From positions 22,637 through 86,636 of the forward strand of contig LRSL01000081.1 of assembly GCA_001563335.1 (NCBI GenBank): a stretch of DNA of 64,000 bases. Direction: 5' to 3'. The stretch comes from Candidatus Thorarchaeota archaeon SMTZ1-45 (GTDB lineage Archaea > Asgardarchaeota > Thorarchaeia > Thorarchaeales > Thorarchaeaceae). Positions 12,378 through 44,000 of the stretch are shown piece by piece. The notes beneath the pieces were generated by a model. That model saw only the letters and a list, made by a program, of their open reading frames with translations, was not told the DNA's origin and made no database searches. Within the stretch, counting starts at the first letter, position 1. Each line of letters opens with the position of its first letter. Made by a program: the position numbers and the translations under genes.

Positions 12378-15026
12378 GTGATTATTGTGCCTGTTCTACA
12401 CTGTTCAAAATGTGGCTCTCGTCTTGACTTCAATAGAGCTGGAGATATTTGGACTGTGACTTGTTCTTCTTGCAATTTGGAGGTTTCAATTGGTGGAAGA
12501 AAGACTGACCTCTTTGATGCATATGAAGCATATACAACTCAAGTTCAGGCAGGTACAGCACTAGCAATGACCAATCAGCGAAAAAAGAAGTATCTTGGGT
12601 CAGGTGCTGACACACCGAGAAAGCGACGTCGGTCTGCTGATCCTGGCTCACGAGTTCAGTCCAAGGAAATAATCACAAAACTAGTGAAATCAGGTGGGGC
12701 GGATCTTAATGAACTCTTAGAGCCTCTTAGGAAACTCCTCACGAGCGGACGTGACTATCTGGTAAAATATCAGCTTATGCCTGCTTCTGATGCAGAGTAT
12801 GGCATTGAAACTGATAGACTAAATATACCAACAAAGCTGAAAGAATACCTTCAAAACCGAGGTATCACAACTCTCTACAAATTCCAAGAGGACTCATTCA
12901 ATGCCATCGAGCATGGAGAGGATTTAGTAATTGCAGCACCGACTGGTCAAGGTAAGACTGAGGCATTCATACTTCCCATAATTAGAAGGCTGCTAATCTC
13001 AGTTCGAGAATCATTTGATAATCCTGGAGTTCGAGCCTTGTTAGTGTATCCCACGAAGGCTTTGGCTCGAGACCAGTATGATAAGATCAAGCGGATGTGT
13101 GTAACCTCGAATCTCACTGTTTCAATATTTGATGGCGACGTTTCACAGAATACTCGACAGAGGATATACGATTCTCCTCCCGATATCCTGCTAACAAATC
13201 CAGATGTTCTTCACTATCATCTTGGTTGGGCAGAATCTAGACTTGTGCCATTACTGAGAACAGTACAATTTGTAGTCCTTGATGAGATTCACCTCTACAC
13301 AGGGTCTATGGGAACAAATGTCTATTACATTCTCAAACGATTGGAACTTGAATCCGGTCGTTTTCAGAAAATCGGTGCATCAGCCACTGTTTCTAATCCA
13401 AAAGAGTTTGCAGATATCCTCTTTGACACTGACGTCAGACTTGTAGAGTCTGTGACTGCCAAACGTGGACCAGTACACTTCATGATGTACTATCCGGGGA
13501 TGAGAAGTAAGTATAGTATGATAGTTGACCTTGTCAATCAACTCCGACAGGGTGATTTCAAGACACTTGTTTTTGGCAACACGCATTCTGAAGCTGAAGT
13601 ATTGAATATGCTCATTGGTGATACTGGTATCAAATCAATGGTTCACAGAGCTGGGTTGCCAAAGAAATATAGGAGTGAAGTTGAAGATCAATTTAGATCT
13701 GGAGACCTCCCTGTCATCGTTTCCACACCAACCCTTGAGCTTGGGATTGATATTGGTGACCTAGATAGTGTGGTCAGTATGATTGTGTCAATAACGCGAT
13801 TGACTCAACGAGTAGGCCGGGCTGGAAGGAAGGGACAAGAGAGTGTAGCTATCTTAGCCCTAAGAGAGAATGATCCCATATCTTCCTTCTATCGACATGA
13901 GCCTGAGAAATACTTCTCAGACATAGACGCAGCATATATGGAGCCAGACAATGAAGTCGTTGGTTACTACCAACTTATTGCAGCAGCTATGAGTGGAAAA
14001 TTAAGCATCTCTAATTTTTCAAGACACAGAGAATTAATTGACAAGCTTGAGAATGAAGGCTTCATTCGAATTCAAGATGGTGGAAAGGTACAGATTGTTG
14101 ATTTTGACAAAGCAAGGAAAGAATGGCGTGGATACAGCATTAGAGGTATCGGAGATACTGTTCAGATTAAGACTGGGAATAAGGGACTTGGTGAACGATC
14201 AATGCCAATGGCAGCTCAAGAGCTTCATCCAGGTGCTATCTATCTCCATGGGGGGAAGAACTACCTATCTGTAGATTTCAAGTATACTCCTGGTTTGGGA
14301 CGTGCCACAGTCGTTCCACACACCAACAGGAGTGAACATACTAAGCCCCTCTACTCGACGATGCCTAGGATTATAGACATAATAGAACGAAGTAAGATTC
14401 TTGGTCTCAATGCTGTCTATTGTACACTTGAGATGACACAGACTGTTGATGGCTATGTGACAAAGGAAACCAGGACCGCTCGAGTGCTGAACAGAACAAG
14501 TCTTTCAAAGCCTCTCATCTACAAGTATCGAACTCGTGGTTTTGCTTTCACAGCTCCTGAACCAGTCAAGGCAGTCAACAACCAGACTTCTGGAGAGTTG
14601 CGTGCATTGAAGGGTCCTCGAATGGGTCCAGCTGAATTGTATGGTGGCGCTTTTCATGCACTTGAACATGTACTAATTGAGTCTAGTGACATGCTTACTG
14701 GTGGTGGCACACGTGAGATAGGAGGCGTTTCCATGGGTGACTCAGGGATTATTTTCGTTTATGATGGAAGCCCTGGGGGAAATGGTGCCTCTAAACTATT
14801 GTTCACAAAGCTTGATGAAGCATTCCGAAGGGCAAAGACAATTCTTGAGAAGTGCGACTGTGATACCATAGACGGGTGTCCTCTGTGCACGTATTCATAC
14901 CATTGCGGTAATAATAACAGTCCCCTATTCAAATTAGGAGCGCTTGAAAGCATCCACAAAATCCTCGAAAAAGTTGAAACAACAGTTGATATCGAGGGAT
15001 ACATTGGCTACCAACCCCTTGTCTAA
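12378..15026 (+). CDS. SF2 DEAD/DEAH-box helicase with C-terminal DUF1998 (Hrq1/MrfA/SftH-like) and N-terminal Zn finger
   Basis: APTGQGKT, DEIH, SAT, LELGIDIG, QRVGRAGR; C-terminal HALEH...YDG..GGNG...CDC...GCPLC...C; N-terminal CSKC...CSSC. Confidence 0.9.
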   Translation: MIIVPVLHCSKCGSRLDFNRAGDIWTVTCSSCNLEVSIGGRKTDLFDAYEAYTTQVQAGTALAMTNQRKKKYLGSGADTPRKRRRSADPGSRVQSKEIITKLVKSGGADLNELLEPLRKLLTSGRDYLVKYQLMPASDAEYGIETDRLNIPTKLKEYLQNRGITTLYKFQEDSFNAIEHGEDLVIAAPTGQGKTEAFILPIIRRLLISVRESFDNPGVRALLVYPTKALARDQYDKIKRMCVTSNLTVSIFDGDVSQNTRQRIYDSPPDILLTNPDVLHYHLGWAESRLVPLLRTVQFVVLDEIHLYTGSMGTNVYYILKRLELESGRFQKIGASATVSNPKEFADILFDTDVRLVESVTAKRGPVHFMMYYPGMRSKYSMIVDLVNQLRQGDFKTLVFGNTHSEAEVLNMLIGDTGIKSMVHRAGLPKKYRSEVEDQFRSGDLPVIVSTPTLELGIDIGDLDSVVSMIVSITRLTQRVGRAGRKGQESVAILALRENDPISSFYRHEPEKYFSDIDAAYMEPDNEVVGYYQLIAAAMSGKLSISNFSRHRELIDKLENEGFIRIQDGGKVQIVDFDKARKEWRGYSIRGIGDTVQIKTGNKGLGERSMPMAAQELHPGAIYLHGGKNYLSVDFKYTPGLGRATVVPHTNRSEHTKPLYSTMPRIIDIIERSKILGLNAVYCTLEMTQTVDGYVTKETRTARVLNRTSLSKPLIYKYRTRGFAFTAPEPVKAVNNQTSGELRALKGPRMGPAELYGGAFHALEHVLIESSDMLTGGGTREIGGVSMGDSGIIFVYDGSPGGNGASKLLFTKLDEAFRRAKTILEKCDCDTIDGCPLCTYSYHCGNNNSPLFKLGALESIHKILEKVETTVDIEGYIGYQPLV

Positions 15027-15041
15027 TGAGGTGAATAGTAA

Positions 15042-16964
15042 ATGGCTGAGTTTCGTGTAGGTCGTGGTCATGATGGTCCCGCCCGCGTGGGTGAGTATAT
15101 TCTAGGACCTACAACATATGCAACACCTCTCTTGACCTCATCATTCACCTCCAGTGATTCCATCATTTCATATGGGACCCAAGGTCGTGACGAACCTTTT
15201 TCAAAGAAACCAATGTTGATCGCACTTCCTTTCACCAGTCATTTCAATGATTTTCCTCTATCAAATGTCCGAGAATCTGACGCAATTATCCTGCCATCTT
15301 TGATCTCACTTGCAGCCATAAGTCATGAATCCCCTGGCTTAGTCCTTGACCTTCAACATGACGTTCTTTCAAGACTCACAAAAGATATTGATCCATCTAG
15401 GACCATTATTCGTATCCCCTCTGAGTTGAACCCTGAATCAATTACAAACTCACACAACTTTGGTTCTCATGGTGCCGCATTTTCTTTCAATGGCCTACTA
15501 GGTTCTAATGACTTTGGTGCCATTCACCTTCGAACTCGTCTGCCTCTCTTCATGCTTGCACTTGCCCTAGGCCGAATTGAACCAGGACTCATTCCACTCC
15601 TTTTCTACGTCGGGTTTGACATCATTGACATCGGTCACGCAGAGGAAGCTGCTGCAAAAAAGCTCAGGTTGTGGAAAAACGGTTCTGAGAGGATAGAGCT
15701 TGGAAAAGAACGTCGCTATTGTTCATGCCCCGCCTGTGAGAAGCTTGACAATGCTACGCCAGAAGCCCTACAGGGTATTATTCTAGAACATAATCTTGGA
15801 ATCTACAAATCTATTCTTTCTGAGTCAAAGGATGCAATGAGATCCGGTCGTTTACGATGGCTAGTGGAGAGTTCTACTCACAACTCTCCCGCACAAGCCT
15901 CTCTCATACGGCTGGTCAATAGAGAACTCTACCCCTTTATTGAAGAATTCTCTCCCACAACAGGACCAGATGCCTTACCAGTGATTGGGTCCGAATCTTA
16001 CAATGCTCCAGTAGTACAAAGGTTTAGAGATTATGTAGCAAATAGATATGCTGCTCCTGATAACAAACCAATCATTCTCCTGCTACCTTGCTCTGCGAAG
16101 AAACCCTATTCTGACTCAAAGTCTCACAGAAAATTCTCTGCTGTAATTGAATCAGCAATGAGTGGAATGGAATCTAGAGTGGCTCAAGTTATACTTACCT
16201 CACCACTTGGACTAGTCCCTCGAGAACTTGAAAGAATCTATCCTGCTGGCCAATATGACATACCTGTGACTGGCGATTGGGATACAGAAGAAATCGCAAT
16301 TGGTGCCAACGCCCTCATTACCCACCTAAACAAATTCCCTATTTCTTCAGTTGTCATAGCACATGTGTCTGGAGGTTATCTGGACATAGTCCGAGCTGCG
16401 GAACCAAGAATTGCACAAAGTCTGATCTATACGACACATGAGAATCGAGCAACAAGTCGTGAGTCACTAAATGCATTACAGGAAACGCTAATCGAACTCA
16501 AAGAGATTCTCTCTATATCTGGTGGACCTAGAACTGAATTGGAAGAGATTGTTACCGCTACAGCAGATTATCAGTTCGGAGCTAGGGCTGGTAAAGTATT
16601 AGTCCCTGAACATGCAAAACTCAGGGGAAAGCCATACAAGCAAATCATCTGTAGTTTAAATGAGGATCAAATCTGTTCCTATGTGGCTGAGAGTGGCACA
16701 CTATCACTGACACTTGCTGGAGGAAAACTTCTTGCTCCACTAAATCGTTATTGGGTCCGTCTTGAGGCTCCAAAAGTCAAGGGTGGATCCGTCTTTGCGG
16801 TGGGTATACAAAAGGCTGATTTTACCATTCGTCCTGGTGATGAAGTCGTTGTCATTAACGAATCCAATGATGTTATTGCTGTAGGTCGAAGTGAGATGTC
16901 TGGCCGTGAGATGTGCGAGTTACCACGAGGTAGAGCTGTAACTGTTCGTCATAAAAAGGAGTGA
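15042..16964 (+). CDS. arcS: Archaeosine synthase subunit alpha (ArcS/TgtA2) with PUA domain
   Basis: DGPARVG, CSCPAC...H Zn site, LLPCSAKKPYS.SKSH, TSPLGLVPRELE..YP...YDIPVTGDW, C-terminal PUA (IRPGDEV); GAGGTGA RBS. Confidence 0.92.
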   Translation: MAEFRVGRGHDGPARVGEYILGPTTYATPLLTSSFTSSDSIISYGTQGRDEPFSKKPMLIALPFTSHFNDFPLSNVRESDAIILPSLISLAAISHESPGLVLDLQHDVLSRLTKDIDPSRTIIRIPSELNPESITNSHNFGSHGAAFSFNGLLGSNDFGAIHLRTRLPLFMLALALGRIEPGLIPLLFYVGFDIIDIGHAEEAAAKKLRLWKNGSERIELGKERRYCSCPACEKLDNATPEALQGIILEHNLGIYKSILSESKDAMRSGRLRWLVESSTHNSPAQASLIRLVNRELYPFIEEFSPTTGPDALPVIGSESYNAPVVQRFRDYVANRYAAPDNKPIILLLPCSAKKPYSDSKSHRKFSAVIESAMSGMESRVAQVILTSPLGLVPRELERIYPAGQYDIPVTGDWDTEEIAIGANALITHLNKFPISSVVIAHVSGGYLDIVRAAEPRIAQSLIYTTHENRATSRESLNALQETLIELKEILSISGGPRTELEEIVTATADYQFGARAGKVLVPEHAKLRGKPYKQIICSLNEDQICSYVAESGTLSLTLAGGKLLAPLNRYWVRLEAPKVKGGSVFAVGIQKADFTIRPGDEVVVINESNDVIAVGRSEMSGREMCELPRGRAVTVRHKKE

Positions 16965-16973
16965 AAGAGAGGT

Positions 16974-18056
16974 ATGGAAGTAACTCTTAGACAAATCAAT
17001 GAAGTTGTTCAACAAGCCACTCTACAGGCTCGAGGAAGTTCACTCAGAAAGAGAAAGAAAAGAAATCCAATACAACCCTCTGCGAAGTGGACAGCACCCG
17101 CCAGAGTTGGTAGAGAACAAGGAACTGCACTTGCAGTTGTCTTGTCAACCATAGGATGTGCGCATGCACGGAGTGATGCAGGAGGTTGCACAATGTGTAG
17201 CTATCTCCTAGATGGTACACAAGAAAAGCCAACTTCCGAAGAGATAGTTGCCCAATTCAAATTTGCAATTTTGGAGCTAGACATGAAAGAAGCTCCATTA
17301 TCAGTCAAAATCTACACTAGTGGTAGTTTTTTGGATGATGAAGAAGTCCCATCAGAGGCAAGATTCAAGATTCTGAATTTAATATCAAAAGATGAGAGGA
17401 TACGTGAAGTAGTGCTTGAATCTCGACCAGAATATGTCAATGATATGAATCTATCAGATATTCGAGAGGCACTTGGTGATAGAACTATTGAGATTGGGAT
17501 GGGGCTCGAAAGTGCAAGTGATGCAGTTCGTTCAGTTTGCGTAAACAAAAATTTCGACTTGAAAATATTCAGCAATGCTCTGAAGACCGCTAAGAAATTC
17601 AATATTGGCACTCGTGCTTATGTGTTACTCAAGCCACCTTTTCTTACAGAACGTGATGCACTTCTTGATGCTATCTCAACAATACAAGAAGCACAAACAT
17701 TGGGGGTCACAACTGTTTCTCTTAATCCAGTCAATGTACAGAGGGATACACTAGTTGAGAAGCTCTGGACACGAGGCAATTACAGACCACCTTGGTTATG
17801 GAGTGTTCTTGAAGTACTTCGTGAAGCTACAAGTATCTCTGATCGGTGGATGAAGATTGTCTGTGATCCTGTAGGGGGAGGAAAGAGAAGAGGTGCACAC
17901 AATTGTGGTAAGTGTGATAGTGAAATACTAGATGCAATTCGAGAATTCTCATTGAGTCAAAACTCTTCTTTGCTGGATAATCTGAGTTGTGACTGTATCA
18001 ATCAGTGGAAACATGTCCTGACACACGAAGACTTCTCTCTAGTGGCTCATAGATGA
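16974..18056 (+). CDS. raSEA: Archaeosine biosynthesis radical SAM protein RaSEA
   Basis: GC...GGCTMC, KIYTSGSFLD..EV, ESRPEY, YVLLKPPFL.E, YRPPWLWS, RGAHNCGKCD; adjacent to arcS. Confidence 0.92.
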   Translation: MEVTLRQINEVVQQATLQARGSSLRKRKKRNPIQPSAKWTAPARVGREQGTALAVVLSTIGCAHARSDAGGCTMCSYLLDGTQEKPTSEEIVAQFKFAILELDMKEAPLSVKIYTSGSFLDDEEVPSEARFKILNLISKDERIREVVLESRPEYVNDMNLSDIREALGDRTIEIGMGLESASDAVRSVCVNKNFDLKIFSNALKTAKKFNIGTRAYVLLKPPFLTERDALLDAISTIQEAQTLGVTTVSLNPVNVQRDTLVEKLWTRGNYRPPWLWSVLEVLREATSISDRWMKIVCDPVGGGKRRGAHNCGKCDSEILDAIREFSLSQNSSLLDNLSCDCINQWKHVLTHEDFSLVAHR

Positions 18057-18536: not shown

Positions 18537-20318
18537 CTAGATTGATGTAACTTCAGGTTCGCGGCGTTCGTACTCACCCTCCCCTTGTACTATGACCCTA
18601 AGTTTTTTCTTGTCTCCAGGATTCATTCGAGTCCAAGTCCATACCATTTTTGAACCATCAGAAACAGCTGAAACCTCAGGAGCATCCTCCTCTGGATCTG
18701 TGGATACATAATCGAATCCCGAAGGAATCCAGTCGGAAACCTGAATGTTTTCAGCGGTCACCTCACCACTATTAGTAACTACAAGCACTACGATATACTC
18801 TCCAGCGCCTACTCCTTTGTTTATAGCTTTCTTTGTTGAGATCGCCCGTTTCTTGTAGATTACTCCAAGCTTATGTCCATCCTCTGGACTTCCTACGATT
18901 GCTGGTACCCCTGCAGGCTCTGTATTCGCTGTACAGGTGACTGGTGAAGGATATTCCTTCTCAGGTCGACTTCGCCACGCCATTATAGCATAGTTGATTT
19001 TGATGCTTTCACCAGGCTCTAATTCTCCAACTGTATTTCTGAGGTCTTCTAATCTGAACGATATTTTATGAGGTTTCTCTGGATCTTGGTCTTCAGGATC
19101 TATTACAAACTCGAAGGGTCCCGTGTACTCTTCGTTTCTAATCCAAACAGTGACATGCTCACTAGTTGGAGGCATGACATCATCTGGTAGATTATCCTCA
19201 ATAGTGATCTCATTTATTTTTGCAGATCCATTGTTAGTCACTTCAATTGTGACCTCAACTGGTGTCTTGTCAAAGCTACTTACCGAAGGTGGGTCGAATG
19301 TCTTTTCATAATCAATACTATAAACTGGAATCTCTTGAGGTACTTTCTTAATTGTTCCAAGTACTCTCTTTTTGATCTCTCTAGCAGGTGTGTATATGAT
19401 GTCTTGTGTGCATTTTGGAGTTGACTTGCTTTCGACCTCAAAGCTTGAAGTCCACTCTTGATTTGGTTCCAATTCAATGCCAGGAGTTTCCTCTATCATC
19501 TTCTGTTTCTCGCTACCGTCCTCGGGAGTGAGATAGACCTCTGCTTTGTCCAACCTGACAATTAAGTCGCTTTCATTTGAACATTCCAGTGTGCATTGCC
19601 ATTGATTTGGTTCTGTTTCAGCAGTTTCGATTCCAGTCAGAAATTCAGTAAGTGCTGTCAGGTCAGGATTTAGATTGGATCTTTGTTGGTCTTCGCCTCT
19701 ATAAGTGATGACAACATCTCCAGCTCCCTTGGGTTCCGTATCGTCGACATATCCTCTTGCTCGTAGAACAAGTGATGAGGATTCGTGTGGATAGACTACA
19801 AAGTCCTTCCAGACTACTTGTTTAGTTCCTTCATCATATTCTGCGTTACCTGACTTTACAGACATAATTTCAATATTGGAGAGTTCTGGAGGAATTGTCT
19901 TATTGAGAATGATATTGTCAATTTCTCCATCTGTTTCATTGGTGATAGTTAATGTAATCTTAACAGGATTTTCCTTATCTTTAACATATGCCCAGTGAGG
20001 TTCATCTGTTTCAATTGTACCACATGTATCAAACACTTCTTTGAAGGTCAATATTGGTGATTCTACATTAAGACCATAGTTGGCCTCCCACTTTCCACCG
20101 ACATCTATCTCACCAGCGACAAGTTTTTCGTCACCAATATCTGTTGCACCACGCGTTTCACCAAGGTGGACTTTTACATTCCAGATACGGCTCCTCTCTG
20201 ACACATTATTAACGCTTAGAACACCCGAAGCATCAATACTATTCAGCTCAGATCGTTCTCCAAGCTTAACCTTCTCTGACTCTTCGAGGTCAATTACGAT
20301 TTTTTTTCTTTCACTCAT
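18537..20318 (-). CDS. Acidic all-beta cytoplasmic protein; N-terminal mu-homology-like (adaptin mu/delta-COP) domain plus Ig/DUF11-like domains
   Basis: No signal peptide or TM segment; repeated V.I.VTN.G....I.I.D.LP beta-sandwich motifs; N-terminal alignment to the MHD (see findings). Confidence 0.75.
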   Translation of the reverse strand: MSERKKIVIDLEESEKVKLGERSELNSIDASGVLSVNNVSERSRIWNVKVHLGETRGATDIGDEKLVAGEIDVGGKWEANYGLNVESPILTFKEVFDTCGTIETDEPHWAYVKDKENPVKITLTITNETDGEIDNIILNKTIPPELSNIEIMSVKSGNAEYDEGTKQVVWKDFVVYPHESSSLVLRARGYVDDTEPKGAGDVVITYRGEDQQRSNLNPDLTALTEFLTGIETAETEPNQWQCTLECSNESDLIVRLDKAEVYLTPEDGSEKQKMIEETPGIELEPNQEWTSSFEVESKSTPKCTQDIIYTPAREIKKRVLGTIKKVPQEIPVYSIDYEKTFDPPSVSSFDKTPVEVTIEVTNNGSAKINEITIEDNLPDDVMPPTSEHVTVWIRNEEYTGPFEFVIDPEDQDPEKPHKISFRLEDLRNTVGELEPGESIKINYAIMAWRSRPEKEYPSPVTCTANTEPAGVPAIVGSPEDGHKLGVIYKKRAISTKKAINKGVGAGEYIVVLVVTNSGEVTAENIQVSDWIPSGFDYVSTDPEEDAPEVSAVSDGSKMVWTWTRMNPGDKKKLRVIVQGEGEYERREPEVTSI

Positions 20319-20390: not shown

Positions 20391-21086
20391 TTAGTCTAGC
20401 TCGTATCTAAACTCGTTTCCTGCCGCCCAGAAAACTTTCAGGACTTGGCCCGGTTCTAAAATCACTGGAGAAATTCCTTGACCAAACTGCTGAATATATT
20501 TGGAGAATTTCTTCGGATCCTCCTCTGATGACCATCTCATAGGTACTCCAACGCGTGGTTTAGCATCAATGCATAGACTAACTGCGTCTTTTACCTGAAA
20601 GACACCATCACCACCAACTGGAACTATAAGTACATCCATATCGAATTGCTCGAATGGACCACGTATCACTGCATCACCAAGATATCCTACTTTCATGTCT
20701 CCAATCTCAATATACAATCCGAGATTTTCAATTCGTCCACCTTCTCCCTCATCGATTCTTGAAAGAGCATAGGGTGTAATCTTCAAATCTGGTATCTCGT
20801 AGGGGACTTCAGATTCGAGAATATGAACTAACCACGGTTTGACTCCTTTTTCAGAAGCTTTGTCAGCGGCTCCCTGATTGCCTAAGAACCATGCTTTTGA
20901 ATTGACTGCGATTGTTGCTGCGTTTCCGACCGCATCTTCAGATTGATTCGTAGCAATAACTATTCTCGCACCAAAATCATCAGGAACGACTGGTTCTTCA
21001 TTCCAAATTCCTGGATTTAGGAGAACAGTCATTTCATTATACTCGAGTGCGAATGAAGTCTTTCCAAAGTACACTATTTTGAGCAA
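20391..21086 (-). CDS. Metallo-beta-lactamase-fold protein (UPF0173-like), degenerate metal site
   Basis: KIVYFGKTSF.L...VLLNP, GYLGD, DVLIVPVGG, DAV.L....KPR..VPM. The HxHxDH position reads TNQSEDA. Start uncertain (21086 or 21104). Confidence 0.75.
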   Translation of the reverse strand: MLKIVYFGKTSFALEYNEMTVLLNPGIWNEEPVVPDDFGARIVIATNQSEDAVGNAATIAVNSKAWFLGNQGAADKASEKGVKPWLVHILESEVPYEIPDLKITPYALSRIDEGEGGRIENLGLYIEIGDMKVGYLGDAVIRGPFEQFDMDVLIVPVGGDGVFQVKDAVSLCIDAKPRVGVPMRWSSEEDPKKFSKYIQQFGQGISPVILEPGQVLKVFWAAGNEFRYELD

Positions 21087-21333
21087 CGAATCACATCCCG
21101 TCAAATTACACTGGCACGGTCAAACCAGAATGACTGCTGCACTACTATCGTTGAGCTTGTCATTAATAAGCTAATTTCTAACCTATGCGGAGTTCTTTGT
21201 CGAACTATAAATTCAGAGCATATTTCCGCTGCTTCTTAAGAGGGCTCTGATCCGCCGAGTGCTATCTTTTTATGACTCTGACAGGACAGTGATTTAGAGG
21301 TCCTGCAAATCCTGAGGAATTATAGAGAGTGAG

Positions 21334-22635
21334 TTGGATTCTATGTTAGATAAGATTCTCACTGAAAATTTCAGAAGAACACTAAAGCTCGTCTTTACTG
21401 ACATTCAAAATCAGCAGGACCGACGCGATGAACAGGAGTTTGCTAAGGATGAAGTCCGCATCAAAGATCGTCTTTTGGACACATTCATATCATACAGTCC
21501 TGATGTGATTTTAAATAACGATTTCCGCATCGCTGCAATTGATGGGTCCGGTTCTGACAGTCTTATGACCCTTGATGACATTCGTATCCATTTCATTAGT
21601 ACTTCAACCGTAGTGGTGGACACAAACACACGATCTGAAAACCTGTTTTCACCAATAGACCGAGATAGACTGGAACACGAACTGGGTGAACAACCACATA
21701 TAGACCTTCATTGGCATTCTGGAGTCCGTAATGATGCCCGTGACAAGCTGGCTGAAACTCTCGCAAATATTTATCCATTGAAAGATGTCACAAGTCTTAC
21801 TCTGCCATTTTTCCAAGATTACACAAAGGGAAAGATCTCCTCGTTTTCGGATTTTAGTGAAACGGAATATGAGAAGCATATTCCACGTCTACGAGAGATG
21901 GAATCATTGATCTCAAGAGAGCAATTATTGACAAATCCGACTGTTCATGAAGAGATAAGAAAAACTAGTGAATATGCAGCAGCACGTAAAGTATTGATGA
22001 GCGATATAAATCCAAAGTATCTCCTCTTGGATGGAGCAATGTCTGTATTCATGCATTTTGTACGACACTTTCCATCAATGCCCAGTGGATTCATGCTTAG
22101 AGACTTATGTGCACTCGCACGACAGAAGGAAGTTGTATTGTGTGCTGTAAGCAAGAACCATACAATCCCTTTTGCTCATCGAATTGCGAATTTGGCAAGA
22201 GATGCTTTTGGAGGTAGTGCAAAGTGGTTCTGTCACCTTCCCAGCAGTGAAGACCCCGAGGGAGGTCTCCATATTTATGATGATCGAACCTATATCCCTC
22301 CAATATTGGCAGTGCCTTACCTATACAGCTTCTCTCGCGATAATAGACCTTCAAGAATTGATTTTGATAGAATTTGGTGGCTTGAGAACATATTTGTTCC
22401 AGGTGACCCTGAGGCCACCCGTACTAATGAAAAGGCACTCTTTGCTGAACTCGAGTTCATGTCAAGAGATGCTCGGTGGTACGGATACCCCGTACCTCTT
22501 GCCTTGGCTCACGAGTCATGCAAATTAAGTTATGAAGATTTACGACTAGCAAAAGAAGTGTGCATGGATGTTAGAGCTGAAATGAATTTGGAACGACGAG
22601 ATGCACAACCACTCCGTGCAGATTATGACTTATAA
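21334..22635 (+). CDS. nurA: NurA 5'-3' nuclease family protein
   Basis: AAIDGS, E, LLLDG, VSK and YGYPVPLALAHE motifs; first gene of the DSB repair cluster. Confidence 0.85.
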   Translation: MDSMLDKILTENFRRTLKLVFTDIQNQQDRRDEQEFAKDEVRIKDRLLDTFISYSPDVILNNDFRIAAIDGSGSDSLMTLDDIRIHFISTSTVVVDTNTRSENLFSPIDRDRLEHELGEQPHIDLHWHSGVRNDARDKLAETLANIYPLKDVTSLTLPFFQDYTKGKISSFSDFSETEYEKHIPRLREMESLISREQLLTNPTVHEEIRKTSEYAAARKVLMSDINPKYLLLDGAMSVFMHFVRHFPSMPSGFMLRDLCALARQKEVVLCAVSKNHTIPFAHRIANLARDAFGGSAKWFCHLPSSEDPEGGLHIYDDRTYIPPILAVPYLYSFSRDNRPSRIDFDRIWWLENIFVPGDPEATRTNEKALFAELEFMSRDARWYGYPVPLALAHESCKLSYEDLRLAKEVCMDVRAEMNLERRDAQPLRADYDL

Positions 22636-22649
22636 CCGAGGAAAACACA

Positions 22650-24410
22650 ATGAGTTTAGATAAAGACAAACTTGGAGAACTTTATGGAAAAGTTGGGGCG
22701 GGTAACCAAACCTCACTTGGGATAATGGGAAGTAACCGTGATATTAGCGTGGGGGAGATCTTTTTGATATATTCCCATCGTGATGGCCATGAGAGAGTGT
22801 TCTTCTTCAGAGTCCTAGGTCTAGAAAATTATCTACGACAAGTCGATGATTTAGCTCGTGTGGCTGGCACGCTCATGGTTGAAGGCGATGCCTATCTGTC
22901 AGGAATTGAACGGAACATGCTGCTTTCTGTTGGTGGCAGAATGCTTGGTTACGCGGAGGATAAGGATGGAAAATGGGATTTTCACTCACCAAGGCGGCTA
23001 CCAGACCATTTGGCTTCGGTTTATCGTCCTATCCCTGGCACGTCTGATGAGAATGTTAGGAACATGCTCGAGGGTCAGATTGACGGTGAGGTCTATGTTG
23101 GAGACCTACAAGTTGGAGAAACTACACTTGATGTTCCAATCAGGATTCCATCAAAATATCTACCAATGCATGTAGGTATCTTTGGTTCTACGGGGGCTGG
23201 AAAAAGCAATTTAATGATGGTACTGATTAAATCAATCATTGATAATAATCTCAATGCCTTCAGAAGACCTAATCAGGCTTTGCCACGAATATCTGCATTC
23301 TGTATTGACCCCCACGACGAGTTTGCTAAGGGCGTTGACAAATATGGTATTCAACATGTGGTTGAAGATATGAGCCCATCAACCAGGTCTGAAGTTCTTG
23401 GTGATTTTTATTACCTGACAACCCACAAGAGAGCCACGACTAGGGAGATTAGGAAGTACGCTCGTGAGATCAGAATCTTGTGGTCTGAAATTCAACCTAG
23501 AGACCTATACTCTATACGAGAGTTCACACCTGAGATGTCCTCCTTCATAGACGCACAATATTCAGTAGCAAAAGAGGATTGGATAAGTTCGATTGTTAAT
23601 ATGGCAGAGGATGATGCAGGAGTGCCTGTTGGAACATTGAGGGCAGTCAAACGCAGGCTTAGTTTCCTTGAGAGATCTCCGATTTTCATTGAAAAAGGGA
23701 CTTCCATTCTTAGTGACATTTTCTATGCAATGGAAACCGGGAGAATTCTCGTTGTCAATACTAGCCTAATGAGCGATATGGAGCAGTTCCTCTTGACAAC
23801 GATAGTAACACGAACATTATCTGATATGAGGCGTGCTTTGAAGAGTAGTGGAAATCTAAGCGATTTTGAGAATCAGGGTCAGATGCGTCTTCCTAAACCA
23901 TTCTTTGAAAATGTTAAGAAGCAAGCTCGGGCATTTTACGGTCTGGGAGGTGTAGGAGATGACACTCCTGTTCAAGACCCACGAAAACTTCCAGTTATTC
24001 AAGTGACAGTCGAGGAGGCGCCATCTATACTCAATCCTGAGCTGATGAGAGGTCAATCAGTCTTTAAGGACATATCACGTCAAGGTAGGAAATTCAATAT
24101 TGGATTGCTCGTTGTAAGCCAACAGGTCAGTGTGCTTGATAATGTCATATTAAGTCAGATGAACACTGAGATTAATCTAAGACTTGGTAATGAACGTGAG
24201 ATACGTGCTTGTGTAGAAAATGCAAGTGTGAACATATCCGGATTTGAGGACGAGTTTCGGGTAATGTCCCGAGGCGAGGCAATTGTGACTCAGTCGTACA
24301 GAGAGCTTCCTTTACCTGCCAAGATACCCCTGTTTGATGATATTTATGAAAAGGATAGACATAGATACAAAGACAAAGAGTCAAAGAAAAAACAAGAACA
24401 TATACTATGA
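22650..24410 (+). CDS. herA: HerA bipolar DNA helicase/translocase
   Basis: N-terminal HAS-barrel-like region, HVGIFGSTGAGKSN, IDPHDEF, VTVEEAP, RQGRKF.IGL.VVSQ, RGEA. Confidence 0.92.
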   Translation: MSLDKDKLGELYGKVGAGNQTSLGIMGSNRDISVGEIFLIYSHRDGHERVFFFRVLGLENYLRQVDDLARVAGTLMVEGDAYLSGIERNMLLSVGGRMLGYAEDKDGKWDFHSPRRLPDHLASVYRPIPGTSDENVRNMLEGQIDGEVYVGDLQVGETTLDVPIRIPSKYLPMHVGIFGSTGAGKSNLMMVLIKSIIDNNLNAFRRPNQALPRISAFCIDPHDEFAKGVDKYGIQHVVEDMSPSTRSEVLGDFYYLTTHKRATTREIRKYAREIRILWSEIQPRDLYSIREFTPEMSSFIDAQYSVAKEDWISSIVNMAEDDAGVPVGTLRAVKRRLSFLERSPIFIEKGTSILSDIFYAMETGRILVVNTSLMSDMEQFLLTTIVTRTLSDMRRALKSSGNLSDFENQGQMRLPKPFFENVKKQARAFYGLGGVGDDTPVQDPRKLPVIQVTVEEAPSILNPELMRGQSVFKDISRQGRKFNIGLLVVSQQVSVLDNVILSQMNTEINLRLGNEREIRACVENASVNISGFEDEFRVMSRGEAIVTQSYRELPLPAKIPLFDDIYEKDRHRYKDKESKKKQEHIL

Positions 24411-24420
24411 GGCTGACTAG

Positions 24421-25731
24421 ATGAAGGCAAGAATTGCTCACATCTCAGATACCCACCTTGGAACCCGTCCAAGAGATGGTGTTCGTCCCAATGTATGGGG
24501 CGAAGAGATGCGTTCTCAGTTACTTGAGAATGATTTCTATGAGCGGTTCCGAGAACTCTTTGATAAGATATCAAGACTTGACCCTCCTGTTGATCTAGTT
24601 GTCCATTCTGGTGATTTATACAACTCACCTTGGGAGGGTAATCCCTCTCAACCTCCTGTTGTTGCTCAAGAAACCGCTATTACAGTCCTTCAAAACTTCA
24701 TAACAACGACTAAGATTCCAGTTCTAATTATTGAAGGAAACCATGGACTCTACAGGCTGTTAGAGGTCTCTCTTCTTGACAGTCTGAAACTAGCTGTTCC
24801 AGGATTGGATGTTGCAACGCAACAAGATCTGAAAAGAGCAGTGAGGGAAGGAGAACCTCTTGTTTTCTCTTATGACAAATTAGACGCCTACTGCTTTCCA
24901 TTCATGGATTACGCAGTTCTCAAGTCTGCTGACATGATCTCGGGATTTGATGATTGGATTACAACTCACCAAACTCGTGTTAGATTAAGACCCTCGATTG
25001 CCGTAGCTCATGGAATGGAGATTGACCAGACATTATTCAAGAGTATATTCTCAATGGATTATGATTACATTGCGCTGGGACACGACCACCATCAACATCA
25101 GCAATCAACAGGAGCATGGTATGCCGGTTCACCTGAACGCTGGAGGTTTGATGAAGCCCGTCATGAAAAAGGATTCCTAGTCGTGGACATCCAAGCAGGC
25201 ACTGCACCAATAGTGACACCGTACATGCTTGAATACAAAAGGCAAATCATCAATGAGAAAATCAAGATAGACACCGATGACTCTGTCGAATCTATTTCAG
25301 ACAAGGTCTATGCTCTATTTGACAAGAAAGGTGTAAAGGCTCCATGGAACCCTGAAACAGCAGCTCGAATTCGTCTTGTGTTTGAAGGAAAAGCGACTCG
25401 TGTGAGTTCATTTGAACTTGGGATGACTCTTGAATCTTTAAGAATGAAAATCCACTCGAAAGACTCCGAATATAATGTAGCGCAGTTGTTTTGGACTGTT
25501 CGTCAATCCATCGATGAAGAGTTCACAGCTGCATCATATCCTGAAATTGAATCTGAATATCTCATACAGGACCCTGAGGAGGATTTCCGTGCATATCTTG
25601 AAACATTAGAGATCGATAAGACCATGGATCCGAGTATGCTCACAAAGATTGCAGTACGTTCGCTTGAACACGCAGTGGGAAAGAAGGAAGGTCGATTGAA
25701 TACTGAATCAATCATGGAGGATGAAAAATGA
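24421..25731 (+). CDS. mre11: Mre11/SbcD metallophosphoesterase nuclease
   Basis: HISDTHLG, HSGDLY, GNH, AHG, LGHDH and YAGSPE motifs. Confidence 0.92.
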   Translation: MKARIAHISDTHLGTRPRDGVRPNVWGEEMRSQLLENDFYERFRELFDKISRLDPPVDLVVHSGDLYNSPWEGNPSQPPVVAQETAITVLQNFITTTKIPVLIIEGNHGLYRLLEVSLLDSLKLAVPGLDVATQQDLKRAVREGEPLVFSYDKLDAYCFPFMDYAVLKSADMISGFDDWITTHQTRVRLRPSIAVAHGMEIDQTLFKSIFSMDYDYIALGHDHHQHQQSTGAWYAGSPERWRFDEARHEKGFLVVDIQAGTAPIVTPYMLEYKRQIINEKIKIDTDDSVESISDKVYALFDKKGVKAPWNPETAARIRLVFEGKATRVSSFELGMTLESLRMKIHSKDSEYNVAQLFWTVRQSIDEEFTAASYPEIESEYLIQDPEEDFRAYLETLEIDKTMDPSMLTKIAVRSLEHAVGKKEGRLNTESIMEDEK

Positions 25732-27806
25732 AGCTCCTCCAATTAAAGGTTCGAAACTTCAAGCCTTTCAGTGCTCTCATGTTGCCTGAGGGAGATGCTG
25801 AGCTTCCTGAAGGACTTATTCTCATAAGAGGTCAGAATTCTACAGGAAAATCCTCTCTCTTCGAAGCTATCCTCTGGGGCTTCTGGGGTGCAGATGCAGT
25901 TGACTTAACGAATGATGAGCTCATAAACTTCAGATCAACAAACTGCCAAGTGGTTCTCACTTTCCAGATTGCTGATACTCAATACAAGATTGATCGTTCC
26001 TATGATCCAGCGAATGGAATGGCTGTTGTCCTATTCATAAATCGAGAAGGTGCTTGGAAACGTATTGCTGACAAAAGTAAGTCTGTCAATTCTAAGCTCG
26101 ATGAGATTCTGTGCCTTGAGCTTAGGCAAGCCTTGAATACCCTTCTTGTCAGACAAGGAGAGGTTGCAGTCATTGCGAATGCTACTCCTTCAGTCCTGAG
26201 AGACCTTCTCGTAAAAGTATATGATATTGACTTACTTAATCAGATGTCAAGTCATTTAGAAAGTCTTGAGAAAGATGTGGACTCAAAAATCAACTCTCTG
26301 AAGTCAGACTATATTCATCCTGAGCGAATTCAAGAAATGGTTGCAGAGCGCCAAGATGAAATCCGTCGTTTAGAATCTATTCTAATTACTAAAAAGAAAG
26401 AGATCGAATCTACGGAAAAGATACTCGAAGAGATGCCAAATGCTGAACTCTTAAAGAAGGTTCAAGAACTCAGTAAGAATATTGAGTTTCTTCAGCAAGA
26501 GGTTGAAGTTAAGAGTGAAGGTCTTAAGGAAGACATTGCACTAGCTGGTGTTGTTGACGCAAGTCCCAAAGTTCTGAACGCGCGATTGGATGCTCTTGAG
26601 CAGGGAAGAAAACGGATTGAGAAAGAACAAAAGGTACTCAAGAGCAAGATTCAGCGTCTGGATCAAGATATCGGGATGAGTTTAGGCACAAATCGTGACC
26701 TTGAAGAGAAGATCCAGATACTTACCGCTGCTGGTACTGATGATATCATCGAATGTCCGACCTGTGCAAAACCACTCTCTGCAGCTGAAAGAAACAAACT
26801 CGTGACTGAATACAAGATAACAATCAAAGATAGCGAAACGAAAAGAAAGCGATTAGAGATCACCAAACAGGAACTCATAACATCCTCCGAGGACTTCGAA
26901 GATCAACTTAGTAGAATGTCCAAAAGCGAAGATGCTGTAAAAAGAGCTAACCAGGGGCAGAAAAGAGTTGACCAATCAAAAGAGAAATTATCCAAAGTTG
27001 AGCAGGAGTTTTCAATGCTCTTGGAAGAATATAACATTAAGAGCGTAGATAAGCTGCTCAAGAAATACAATATGCCTACTATTATCGAACTTCATGAGAA
27101 AGTTATCTCTCTCACATCAGCTTTGAAAGCGCTTCGTAAAGAAACAATGGAAAGTGAGGACAACATTCAAAGAGAAAAGGACAAGATTATCGAACTTCAA
27201 GGAAAGCAATCACAGATGGAACAGATTGGATCTGAAATTGTTGAACTTGAGAATATGAACGAACACGCAAAATATGTTCGGAGAAGACTTGTGAGTGGAT
27301 TTGTCACTGACTATGTGTTTCAAAAACGACTTCTTGGTATCATCAGAGGGGCGACCAATCCATATGTTCGGTCATTCACCAATGGTCAATATACAGCAAT
27401 TGATTTAGAGCCTACACCCGCCAAGGGTCGAGCAGGTCCAGGGTTAATCCTTCGAATTTGGGATGAAAGAGATCAAGCCTGGAAAAAAACATCTCAGCTG
27501 AGTTATGGCGACAGGACAGCAATCAGTCTAGCGCTACGAATGGGAATTAGTCGTACCATGAGCAGCATTCGACCACTTAGGGACAGCCCTATTGTGACCC
27601 CACGTGTTCGTTCTGTTCTTCTCGATGAACCTTTGGGTGGTCTTGATAAGAATAGAAGAGAGGCTGTTGTGCGGAACCTCATTAATGATCGGAGTTTTGA
27701 ACAGATACTCTTAATCACTCACACTGACGTTCAAGGCTGGCTGGGAGTCCCAGTCATAGAAGTTACGAAGGATGGTGCTTTTAGTAACGCAACTCTTGAG
27801 ATGTAA
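25728..27806 (+). CDS. rad50: Rad50/SbcC ATPase
   Basis: GQNSTGKSS, VRQGE Q-loop, central CPTC zinc hook in coiled coil, LSYGD signature, LLDEPLGGLD, ITH; ATGA overlap with mre11. Confidence 0.92.
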   Translation: MKLLQLKVRNFKPFSALMLPEGDAELPEGLILIRGQNSTGKSSLFEAILWGFWGADAVDLTNDELINFRSTNCQVVLTFQIADTQYKIDRSYDPANGMAVVLFINREGAWKRIADKSKSVNSKLDEILCLELRQALNTLLVRQGEVAVIANATPSVLRDLLVKVYDIDLLNQMSSHLESLEKDVDSKINSLKSDYIHPERIQEMVAERQDEIRRLESILITKKKEIESTEKILEEMPNAELLKKVQELSKNIEFLQQEVEVKSEGLKEDIALAGVVDASPKVLNARLDALEQGRKRIEKEQKVLKSKIQRLDQDIGMSLGTNRDLEEKIQILTAAGTDDIIECPTCAKPLSAAERNKLVTEYKITIKDSETKRKRLEITKQELITSSEDFEDQLSRMSKSEDAVKRANQGQKRVDQSKEKLSKVEQEFSMLLEEYNIKSVDKLLKKYNMPTIIELHEKVISLTSALKALRKETMESEDNIQREKDKIIELQGKQSQMEQIGSEIVELENMNEHAKYVRRRLVSGFVTDYVFQKRLLGIIRGATNPYVRSFTNGQYTAIDLEPTPAKGRAGPGLILRIWDERDQAWKKTSQLSYGDRTAISLALRMGISRTMSSIRPLRDSPIVTPRVRSVLLDEPLGGLDKNRREAVVRNLINDRSFEQILLITHTDVQGWLGVPVIEVTKDGAFSNATLEM

Positions 27807-41076: not shown

Positions 41077-44000
41077 TTACTCCTTTTCCAAATCTGCATC
41101 AATGCTCTTCAAGAGATCCTCGATTAATGCACTGGGAAGACCTTTTGCTTGCTTTACGATTGAATCAATTTCCTCCTCTGGCAACCCTCGCTGCTCAAGT
41201 TGCATTCGTAACTCTTCCACCTCTAATTCAGTTAATCTATCTTCAAACTCAATTTCCTCAGGTTCTTCTCTTGGTACCAGACCTTCAATTGTCTTCAGAA
41301 AATCTTCAATTTTATCCCTTTCAACTGTTTTAGCTTGCTTCATAATTGATTCAATCTCTTTCTTCGGTACTCTTTTCTTTACTAACTCGGCTCTCAATCC
41401 TTTGAGTTCCTCTTTAGAGAATGCTTTAACTTTCTTAGCACTTTTCTTCTTGGGTGGTTCTTCTGGTTCTTTAAAGAGATCGAGAGCAAGTTCCCTGGGA
41501 AGGCTTCTTGCTTGGTCAATGATTGACTTAATTTCACGATCAGTAGCATTTCGTTTAATCAGTTCAGCTCTTAATTCCTCAATCTCCTCTTCAGTTAGAT
41601 GCTCGATTGCTTTTTCAGCCTCTTCTACCTTCTCTTTTGGTTGGAAACTTTGAAGAAGCATCTCGACTATATCTTTAGGTAGGTCTCGAGCTTGGATGAT
41701 AAATGACTCAATCTCATGTTTTGGAATTCCACGTTTTTCTAGTTCAGAAGCCATTTCTTCGAGCTCAAATTCTCTCATTCTATTTTCGAAATCAATTCCT
41801 TCCTCTTCAACCACCTCGGCCTCCTCTTCAACTGCCATATAGATCTCTGGCTTTGTTGGTGGTGCAGTACCGCCAATTCTCCTTCTTCTCTCTTCAACAA
41901 CTTCTTCTATGACCTGTTCTAAGGGTTTGTTTTGAACTCCTGCAACTCTTATGACCTCCTGTCTGATTACCTCCCTCACAAAACTGGTCTGTTGACTCAT
42001 TTTCATCTTTGAAATCTCAAGTCGGAAATCATCAAGTTCCTGCTGAGTCATCCCTGTCAGAATTGATAGATCTATAATCAGCTCATCGATCTCAGGCACT
42101 TCAATTATAATGGGCTCTCCAGGCATTTGAGAGGCTTTTCTACGCAGTCCAGTTGGCTCGTATAATTCATTGAATATCTCTGCAAGGAGTGCTTGTCTTG
42201 TCTTTGCGTCTTTAGCTCGTTTTGGTACCTTTCCTCTCCTGACCTGCCGAATCTGTCCACTAATTATTCTGATTATCTTTGGCACTCTCAGAACACGTAC
42301 CCACACAAGAGAGCCAAGAATTAATATGATGATAAGAGCTCCTCCATATGTTATCATATTCTGCATAGCGATATCTTCGGGAGACGGACTAACTGGAACA
42401 GTAAATATCACTTCGTTGGCATCATAGTACGTCTTGTTGAATTTGATTGTAACCACTGCGGAACCCTGAGCTCTATGTGCAATGACTCTGAATTGATAAT
42501 ATCCTGGACGACTTGCATCAGGACCAAGATATTCAACAGTTGCAAAATCAGGATGCTGATTATCAACCACGAATGTTGCATCAGTAATCCCCTCTCCTGA
42601 GTGTCCTGGCCAAGCATCTGAATAATAAACCCAAAAGGTGGTGTTCATCCCCCAGTGAAGTGGCATTACCGAAGGTCCATCTATCTCAAGATTAGTCTGA
42701 ATTGTGATAATGGTGATCTCGAAAACAAATACTGCTGTTGTATAATTCTCAAGCATGAATCGAATATGAAATGAAACCCTCGAAAATAGATTCCAGTCAG
42801 GTGTATTGAAAACGAAGGAATAATTGCCATTTCCATGATTCGTCAAGATAAGCGGTTCTTCATAGACTCCTGGTCCAGAATAGAATGAGGTGTTGTACGA
42901 AGCATCAGGAATACCTCGTGCACTATTTGTGTCATTGTACAGCAGAGTGACTGTAAGTATATCACCATAGGGAACTCGTAGATTTGTCCATGAATCGCCT
43001 ACTCGATATAGTTCTGGGAGAAGAATGGTAATTTCAGTGGGCACAGTCGAAATATGGATTCTTATCGTTAATTCAACATCCTCATAGTTTGCCTTACGAA
43101 ATTCAATTGTGATTGTATATGTTCCTGGTCTGAGTGTTGTTGTATTGATTGGAATACCATAGACTCCACCGCCTTGATAGGATGCACTACCAAATCCACC
43201 CGCCCAAGAATAAGCGGAGAAGTCCGCCTGCATTCCCTGTGCATGAAAATCATCATAATAGGTGACATTGACCAAACCGGCCCATCCCCAAACAAATTCA
43301 GGAGATCCTGGTGATACAATTGTTGCCTCTAGATTTTTCACGAATATTGAAGTTGAATTATCGGCTCTCTCGTAGTCCAGGTTAGGTGGGTTGGCTGAGA
43401 TAATGAATGTATGAAGAGCTGCAATTCCTTGACTTGTGTTGAAGTCATAATAATAATACCCCGAGCCTCCTGTCAGAATCCCATTCACAAGTGTACCATT
43501 TGTGCCAAGCTCGGGTGAGTTCCATGTAACAACCAGACCATCCAATCCGGTTGAGAATGGATGTGTTGCGTTAAGGGCTGGAGCAAGCACATATACTCCA
43601 ATTCTGACAACCTCCGACCAATAGAAAGAGGTGTATTCATAGGTTGCAGTTACATTATCGAGCCATACCACCATCTGGATTTTTGAAATTGCCATAATCA
43701 GTGTTGCTGAGGTATCACCATAGTTTTGCTTTTCAGCGTCTATATGAATCTGGTAACTTCCAAAACCCACGCTTCCTGTTACTATCTGAAGTCTGTAATA
43801 ACCTGGTCTACTCGGTATCTCAACCAATGTAAGATTGGTCCCATAGTCCCATTCTGCTGTGAGGGTTGCTTCAGTCACAAGAGTGCTATCAAGAGAGTCT
43901 TCTATGTATACAATAATTTCCGCAGTGCTTCCATATGAAACAGTGAAGACGTATCTATTCCCTTCAGGAATTACCTCCATTGGTCTTGGCAACAATCTGA

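Follow-up and report, generated by a model that had tools for sequence, protein, structure and literature searches.

A predicted mu-homology-domain fold in a soluble Thorarchaeota protein encoded beside a gene for a metallo-beta-lactamase-fold protein

The DNA analyzed here (the window) is a stretch of 64,000 nucleotides of contig LRSL01000081.1 (positions 22,637 to 86,636, forward strand) from the genome assembly of Candidatus Thorarchaeota archaeon SMTZ1-45 (GCA_001563335.1), and it encodes a 593-residue protein, P0001, whose N-terminal part is predicted to take the fold of the mu-homology domain (MHD). The MHD is the sorting-signal reader of the adaptor protein (AP), coat protein complex I (COPI) and muniscin adaptors, and because it reads sorting signals, an archaeal homologue bears on the origin of vesicle trafficking. 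An earlier reading of the same DNA, made from its letters and open reading frames (ORFs) without database searches (the sequence-only reading), had described the product as beta-rich and acidic, with neither a signal peptide nor a transmembrane segment, and had proposed that it is a stand-alone cargo adaptor. The physical description is borne out by the ORF itself, by composition (Asp plus Glu 18.7%, Lys plus Arg 10.8%), by hydropathy (no hydrophobic N-terminus or transmembrane-like stretch in the 593 residues, with a maximum 19-residue Kyte-Doolittle mean of 1.07) and by the near-complete beta content that DSSP assigns to both of our AlphaFold2 (AF2) models. Because it has no signal peptide and no anchor, the protein is probably cytoplasmic. 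Its gene is single-copy in the source genome, which is 87.7% complete and lies in 119 contigs. On the same strand and 72 bp upstream is a gene for a protein of the metallo-beta-lactamase (MBL) fold. For the comparisons below we divided P0001 into five segments, S1 to S5, whose limits are given with the other features in Table 1.

Table 1. Features of the MHD-fold gene and of the adjacent MBL-fold gene, in window positions.
Feature	Position	Strand	Basis
Complete gene for P0001 (593 aa and stop codon), a soluble beta protein of four modules	18537..20318	-	ORF list, translation, AF2
Residues 2-327; predicted MHD fold	19338..20315	-	AF2, Foldseek, VIA-align
S1, residues 1-108; N-terminal part of subdomain A, six predicted strands (E7-19 to E90-97)	19995..20318	-	AF2 model
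S2, residues 109-215; subdomain B, DUF11-type immunoglobulin (Ig) domain with all of the sequence similarity to mu	19674..19994	-	Pfam, profiles, hhalign
S3, residues 216-335; predicted return strands of subdomain A and extra strands absent from eukaryotic MHDs	19314..19673	-	AF2, structural alignment
S4, residues 336-480; DUF11/DUF7507 Ig-like domain	18879..19313	-	Pfam, hhalign, model strands 335-476
S5, residues 481-593; DUF11 Ig-like domain, weakly like the gamma-adaptin ear	18540..18878	-	Pfam, profile against PDB
MBL-fold (Lactamase_B_3) protein, 237 aa as called (most homologues 231 aa), degenerate metal ligands	20391..21104	-	PF13483, E 6.9e-17

Two AF2 models were obtained, one for residues 1-335 from an alignment of 96 sequences (A8; predicted local distance difference test, pLDDT, 96.3; predicted template modelling score, pTM, 0.86) and one for the full-length protein from an alignment of 69 sequences (A1; pLDDT 94.2, pTM 0.79). 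When the 1-335 model was compared with the PDB by Foldseek, all 39 rows shown were AP mu or COPI delta chains (E 2.5e-13 to 5e-10). An independent search of 48,161 representative chains with VIA-align gave MHDs in all ten top rows, with Z scores of 13.1-16.0 and 210-229 residues aligned. The best of these was AP-2 mu2 (Z 16.0, root-mean-square deviation (rmsd) 3.4 Å, 229 residues aligned, model 3-329 to mu2 169-437), and the others included AP-3 (15.7), AP-4 (15.5), SGIP1 (14.8), delta-COP (14.7 and 13.5), AP-1 (14.7) and Syp1 (13.1); rmsd values to MHDs range from 2.8 to 3.9 Å over the two models. After the MHDs the scores drop to Z 12.0 or less, where pilins, adhesins and macroglobulin domains align over just 110-142 residues. 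For the full-length model all 50 rows shown were MHDs (Z 15.6-18.6), matching residues 2-327 to the complete domain (for example, mu2 168-435), and the structural alignments end at model residues 326-329, which correspond to the last residues of the MHD chains. The predicted models thus display the two-subdomain, all-beta arrangement of MHDs with subdomain B inserted in subdomain A, as judged from the whole fold and not from a count of individual strands, and residues 2-327 are supported over the entire domain as one predicted MHD-fold module. Here the sequence-only reading, which had likened the N-terminal part to MHDs, holds from the first strand of the domain to the last.

In these models subdomain A would consist of residues 1-108 and of the strands that return after residue 216, with the DUF11-type subdomain B (109-215) inserted between them. 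Since 210-229 of 327 residues align to MHDs, residues 2-327 contain about 100 extra residues, and S3 alone has nine predicted strands (E219-223 to E313-325), compared with a C-terminal return in mu2 that we take to be about 40 residues. The earlier suggestion that additional Ig-like sandwiches are both inserted and appended is therefore plausible for the insertions and correct for the appended part, in which two DUF11 domains follow the MHD module at about 336-480 and 481-593. Residues 327-473 match DUF11 (E 7.5e-5) and DUF7507 (E 2.6e-3) in Pfam, S5 matches DUF11 with E 8.5e-10, and S2, S4 and S5 are mutually homologous by hhalign (S2-S5 97.8%, S2-S4 95.4%, S4-S5 97.0%). The caution in the sequence-only reading that DUF11 surface domains share part of the pattern was apt, as subdomain B is itself DUF11-like.

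An MHD cannot be established here from sequence alone. In the full-length protein DUF11 (PF01345) is the sole Pfam family above threshold, with 65.1 bits against a cut-off of 24.6 over three stretches; DUF7507 is matched as well, as is TIGR01451 (43.8 bits, cut-off 24). A phmmer search of PDB sequences with the single sequence gave nothing significant (top match HisF, E 0.041), and its ESM Atlas neighbours are mostly DUF11 clusters, with a eukaryotic Adap_comp_sub/muHD cluster at rank 28 (score 0.79). Close homologues have 593-603 residues and 65-89% identity, and nearly all of the named ones among the best 120 of 201 matches are labelled Thorarchaeota. Seven of these 120 carry a precomputed tag for PF00928, the Pfam family Adap_comp_sub, and on rescanning their scores, 24.3-27.5 bits (E 2.4e-6 to 2.3e-5), fall below the gathering score of 31.6 bits. 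In one of the family members, P0107, residues 12-220 are collinear with positions 10-222 of the 259 in the PF00928 profile, and P0146 and P0158 behave likewise. More widely, 651 proteins among 1.84 billion representatives were found at E≤1e-3, many of them aligned over the full length of about 590 residues at 22-35% identity.

At the level of the family the link to mu is clearer. The profile built from the 69 sequences of alignment A1 finds mu2 or mu3 (AP-2 or AP-3 mu) in all of its best 20 rows against the PDB (E 5e-4 to 6e-3, in two collinear pieces), and PF00928 matches 33 of the 69 members at E≤1e-3 (best 1.9e-10). Among 20 distant members, PF00928 matches 10 at E≤0.01, with only P0160 above the cut-off (34.4 bits). 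HMMER alignments of mu2 chains with the family profile recover three of the four motif pairs that the sequence-only reading had drawn between P0001 and eukaryotic MHDs: IVIDLEE...SGVLSV with ELFLDVLES...SGRVV, NIILNKTIP...AEYDEGTKQVVWK with KIEVRIPTP...AKYKASENAIVWK, and DVVITY...SNLNP with PISMNFEV...SGLKV. The fourth (GGKWEANYGL...PIL) falls between the collinear blocks, outside the reported alignments. Given these E values and the fold matches at Z 16-18.6, the resemblance exceeds what chance would produce. When the segments were searched separately, using alignments from 95-96 diverse genomes, the similarity was located in S2, of which 49 of 96 pieces match PF00928 (best 2.7e-10) and 56 of 96 match DUF11. 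In the window's own S2, PF00928 (E 4e-4) comes ahead of DUF11 (E 1.7e-3). S2 is the part of the protein that aligns to mu2 300-402, and the S2-only profile has AP-3, AP-2 and AP-1 mu as its top PDB matches (from E 0.0038), whereas only 3 of 95 pieces of S5, taken from the same proteins as a control, match PF00928. By this comparison of sequences, the likeness to mu is specific to S2 and not a general property of DUF11.

Co-variation within the family gives a separate view of how the lobes are joined. We applied mean-field direct coupling analysis to 334 unique family sequences (effective depth 173-178), and as single pairs were too noisy we scored beta ladders instead. Ladder density per 10,000 pairs is highest in S1 (22.9), followed by S5 (14.5), S2 (8.8) and S4 (8.6), and is about 0-4 between separate domains; the S1-S2 combination stands out with 6.1. 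The S1-S2 ladders (93-126, 93-203 and 9-110) peak at z 5.4 and include 46 cells with z≥3, whereas no control window exceeds 4.3 or has more than 18 such cells. The result is consistent with two lobes connected in a single rigid unit. Of the raw pairs that link strand 1 to S3, 9-222 ranks highest, at the 99.99th percentile; it is isolated, and it falls on predicted strands 7-19 and 219-223.

The MBL-fold protein is the only conserved partner that we found for the MHD protein. The arrangement of the two genes is kept in 7 of 10 inspected loci, drawn from five taxonomic families, and 77 of 301 sampled Asgard genomes carry a gene closely orthologous to the partner (E≤1e-87). Comparing coordinates by hand, we could determine its position in 75 of these 77, and in 74 it lies directly upstream on the same contig and strand; in the remaining one it is on another contig. 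The MBL partner is likewise absent from two genera of the Thorarchaeota family in which the MHD gene is missing (0 of 3 and 0 of 2 genomes, with a completeness of 90-99%). In a Loki-type family the MHD gene is present in 65 of 68 genomes and the partner in 0 of 68. Alignment A3 shows that the metal ligands of the partner differ by lineage. HxHxDH and the later His, Asp and His are kept in the Jordarchaeales-type rows, with ligands intact at three inspected loci (L017, L018 and L026), while in all Thorarchaeota-type rows, including the one from the window, HxHxDH is replaced by NxxxDA and the two later His by Asn and Arg. Because its metal ligands are lost, the partner in the window is probably catalytically dead. 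A complex prediction for P0001 with its MBL neighbour gave scores of 0.68, 0.55 and 0.55, against 0.46 in one control with chain 1 replaced, and has no weight either way on binding. Genomic context favours an MHD-MBL pair over a coat.

The family is near-universal in Asgard archaea, neither patchy in its distribution nor specific to them. At E≤1e-10 its profile has matches in 262 of the 301 Asgard genomes sampled (77 of the 90 that are of high quality, and 65 of 70 genera), and some lineages carry 3-6 copies per genome. Named members come from Jordarchaeales, Ranarchaeia, Promethearchaeota, Njordarchaeales and Borrarchaeum, and a few are labelled Korarchaeota. We also found matches in 42 of 151 sampled genomes of Thermoplasmatota, 41 of them single and near full length (E 1e-109 to 1e-146) and one split over two contigs, and a query with a single protein (P0209) retrieved relatives in Thalassarchaeaceae and other Thermoplasmatota records. 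No transmembrane segments were found in the Thermoplasmatota forms. A FastTree phylogeny built on 107 sequences taken from the genomes groups the 33 Thermoplasmatota copies in a single clade (support 0.91), separate from all 74 Asgard copies, and because the tree is unrooted we claim no direction of transfer.

Some relatives carry additional domains around the family core. The members from Marine Group II (four loci, for example L028:4578-7859) have 950-1093 residues, in which a core of about 590 residues is flanked by long proline-rich repeats of the APPAPPM type, with an acidic tail of Asp, Glu and Ser and a C-terminal four-cysteine motif (CPIC...CxxC) that is zinc-ribbon-like in look. The paralogue P0177 (739 residues, from a Thorarchaeota-labelled cluster) joins the core to N-terminal HEAT repeats (HEAT_2, E 8.5e-15), and P0201 (1322 residues, from a Borrarchaeum-labelled cluster) joins it to a C-terminal NACHT NTPase. 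The combination of HEAT repeats and MHD recalls the solenoid-plus-appendage logic of adaptins; the source genome of the window has one unfused copy only.

We believe, with a probability of roughly 60%, that P0001 is a cytoplasmic all-beta scaffold made of an MHD-fold module and two DUF11 Ig domains, a remote homologue of the MHDs of eukaryotic AP mu, delta-COP and muniscins, which acts as a peptide-binding platform paired with the MBL-fold protein and belongs to no recognizable AP- or COPI-like heterotetramer. By analogy, it would most likely be a rigid platform, with the edges of its beta sheets as the sites at which short linear peptide motifs in other proteins are bound. It would work with the MBL-fold protein, apparently co-transcribed from upstream, in Thorarchaeota and in three other Asgard families. 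In Jordarchaeales-type genomes this partner has the look of an active metallo-hydrolase, and in Thorarchaeota that of a pseudo-enzyme. Selection on the MHD gene is suggested by its single copy, by the 65-89% identity to the 119 other Thorarchaeota-type homologues listed, and by its occurrence in 262 of 301 Asgard genomes.

Several observations weigh against this reading. The structure is a prediction and not an experiment, and the structurally aligned residues are just 8-14% identical to those of MHDs. PF00928 gives zero matches to the full-length protein of the window even at E≤10, and those to its pieces remain below the cut-off (19.0 bits for the N-terminal 236 residues, 20.3 bits for S2 alone). 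With S1-only and S3-only profiles no mu chain was found in the PDB at E≤10, and PF00928 matches 2 of 96 pieces of S1 and 0 of 96 of S3. The case for homology of the whole module thus depends on the predicted structure and one DUF11-like segment. Nor did co-variation confirm the return of residues 216-260 onto S1, which reached z 3.2 where controls gave 3.2-4.3. Three further points concern function: neither the adaptin trunk (PF01602) nor the ear (PF02883) was matched at E≤0.01 in the 87.7%-complete source genome, although divergent forms may escape such profile models; the longin domain is not fused, because the protein begins directly at the first MHD strand (residue 7); and at the position of Asp10, which the HMMER alignment places opposite the mu2 Asp in ELFLDVLES, only 54% of the 334 family sequences have Asp.

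If P0001 were an ordinary DUF11 repeat protein, its Ig domains would be independent units of the surface type and its matches to adaptors would be noise. This agrees with the Pfam and TIGR01451 assignments, with the DUF11 clusters among the ESM Atlas neighbours and with the mutual homology of three of the five segments. DUF11 repeat proteins, however, are usually secreted or surface-anchored, and 68 of 69 aligned family members lack a hydrophobic N-terminal or transmembrane-like segment (the exception, P0197, has such a stretch at 15-33). Residues 2-327 match MHDs as one interleaved module with Z 16-18.6, whereas Ig proteins reach 12 at most; the S1-S2 co-variation likewise has the form of a sheet contact rather than of beads on a string. 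Neither of the two outcomes that the sequence-only reading had named as refuting its proposal was seen, since the MHD match is strong and the homologues do not routinely carry an N-terminal hydrophobic segment. The repeat-protein explanation is disfavoured and we consider it very improbable. Convergence deserves somewhat more attention, in that a DUF11-type Ig domain inserted in another beta sandwich could mimic the two-lobed shape with no homology to eukaryotic MHDs. The low identity in structural alignments, the lack of any mu signal from S1 and S3, the clear DUF11 relationship of S2 and the roughly 100 of 327 residues left unaligned to MHDs are all what it would predict. It accounts less well for a mu-likeness that distinguishes S2 from S5, for alignments that run collinearly across both subdomains in P0107, P0146 and P0158, and for coverage of the MHD from first to last strand at a Z at least 4 above that of any non-MHD chain of comparable aligned length. 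We judge it improbable.

The remaining alternative concerns function, and holds that P0001 is the counterpart of AP and COPI mu, a cargo adaptor that reads motifs in membrane-protein tails and is tied to a membrane-deforming Asgard coat. The complete MHD fold speaks for it, as do the weak likeness of S5 to the gamma-adaptin ear, the fusion of the paralogue P0177 to HEAT repeats, and the near-universal presence of the family in a phylum with reported trafficking-related proteins (Eme et al. 2023, PMC10307638). The searches for coat components speak against it. Besides the trunk and ear models, PF00928 itself has no match in the source genome, and the only match to the sigma/longin model PF01217 (G000:C118:9084-9386, inside a 285-residue open frame) scores 17.2 bits, below the cut-off of 22.5. 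Among the 20 relatives scanned, the longer ones have N-terminal extensions of 100-200 residues in which no longin domain was found, and one of these carries HEAT repeats. The cargo pocket of mu2 comprises Phe174, Asp176, Lys203, Trp421 and Arg423. Asp10 aligns with the first-strand aspartate of mu2, a presumed pocket residue, which counts in favour of this alternative; Asp at that position in only 54% of the family counts against it. P0001 also has no fused longin and no membrane-binding element, its sole conserved neighbour is the MBL-fold protein, and the family extends to the Thermoplasmatota. The findings thus support the fold alone and not a cargo-adaptor function, which we consider quite improbable, and the proposal of a stand-alone cargo adaptor in the sequence-only reading is not sustained.

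A wider history can also be sketched, although we consider it rather unlikely as a whole. The MHD may be an older archaeal module that predates eukaryotic coats, a DUF11-type Ig domain (the present subdomain B) inserted in another beta sandwich, that was originally the recruiting subunit (for substrate or partner) of a small MBL-fold hydrolase. It would have become near-universal in Asgard archaea and been passed once to, or shared with, the Thermoplasmatota, and the MHDs of eukaryotic mu, delta-COP and muniscins would descend from this family. The 'patchy' record would then be an artefact of Pfam thresholds.

Elsewhere in the window, three ORFs at 12378-18056 (+) may encode, judging from their translations, a DEAD-box helicase whose C-terminus is a zinc domain (882 residues), an archaeosine tRNA-guanine transglycosylase (640 residues) and a radical-SAM enzyme (360 residues). 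Divergent from the MBL-MHD pair, four ORFs of 433, 586, 436 and 692 residues at 21334-27806 (+) look by their motifs like a NurA-HerA-Mre11-Rad50 cluster for DNA-end processing; ORFs of similar size are in the same position at four loci of the Thorarchaeota order (L022-L025) and not at L017, L018 or L026. Two giant tandem ORFs follow on the minus strand, one at 41077-52998 (3973 residues) with only DUF2341 in Pfam, and one at 52995-63998 (at least 3667 residues, running off the window) with Laminin_G_3 and DUF2341. They are probably huge surface proteins and correspond to the membrane proteins at 41-54 kb mentioned in the sequence-only reading.

The family itself is already known. Eme et al. 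2023 (Nature 618:992, PMC10307638) report all five AP domain types from Asgard archaea, the mu C-terminal domain among them, 'albeit sparsely distributed', and Supplementary Table S3 of that study has 44 rows labelled 'Adap_comp_sub (PF00928)'. Four Thorarchaeota entries there (Thor_24, B59_G1, GBS33_23710 and das_tool_maxbin2_13) match the N-terminus of P0001 almost residue for residue; Thor_24, for example, starts MSERKKVVIDLEETEKVQLGELSELTNVDASGVLSVNNVSERSRIWNVKV where P0001 has MSERKKIVIDLEESEKVKLGERSELNSIDASGVLSVNNVSERSRIWNVKV, an orthology judged by reading the printed sequences and not by a tool alignment. This answers the question, left undecided in the sequence-only reading, of whether the architecture had been described, since Thorarchaeota orthologues are listed there under PF00928. 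Members of the same family from Jordarchaeia, Helarchaeales, Hermodarchaeia and Lokiarchaeales are also listed, along with some unrelated rows (helical entries from Gerdarchaeales and Heimdallarchaeaceae, and transmembrane proteins from Lokiarchaeales). The description 'sparsely distributed' differs from the 262 of 301 sampled genomes found here, and the accessible portion of the study makes no mention of a structure, of the MBL partner or of Thermoplasmatota members. In the available text of a 2026 paper the Asgard adaptor homologues are termed 'patchy', and that of a 2026 preprint has AP and COPI subunits among its structural clusters and does not mention the MHD. Beyond Eme et al. 2023 we found no literature on this family, although papers that spell 'mu' with the Greek letter may have escaped the search. 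The case for an archaeal MHD was thus already in print as a list of candidates. Added here are a high-confidence prediction of the fold over the entire MHD, the confinement of the sequence signal to the DUF11-like subdomain B, the near-universal and not Asgard-exclusive range, counts that document how the MHD and MBL genes are linked and lost together, and the lineage-specific loss of ligands in the partner. These findings steer attention from the search for a coat towards what the MHD-MBL pair binds.

Among known systems, the gamma-adaptin ear (GAE, PF02883) resembles the C-terminal domain of P0001. It accounts for the six best PDB matches of the S5-only profile (E 2.8e-4 to 0.03, with no mu chain), is also matched by S2 (E 0.016), and appears as yeast GGA2 GAE with Z 9.5 for the 1-335 model, while the PF02883 model itself matches only 1 of 95 pieces of S5. 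We treat this likeness as a weak lead, because Ig-like sandwiches are common. With AP-1 to AP-4 mu, delta-COP and the muniscins (SGIP1/FCHo/Syp1), P0001 shares the same predicted two-lobed all-beta fold over the whole domain, and its subdomain B is collinear with theirs in sequence. AP mu and delta-COP have an N-terminal longin domain and the muniscins an F-BAR or APA region, none of which is present in P0001; P0001 in turn has two appended DUF11 Ig domains, about 100 extra residues and no detectable set of heterotetramer partners. With the DUF11/TIGR01451 repeat proteins (PF01345) it shares the DUF11-type Ig domain in S2, S4 and S5, but one of its DUF11 units, instead of standing in tandem with the others, is apparently embedded as subdomain B of an MHD.

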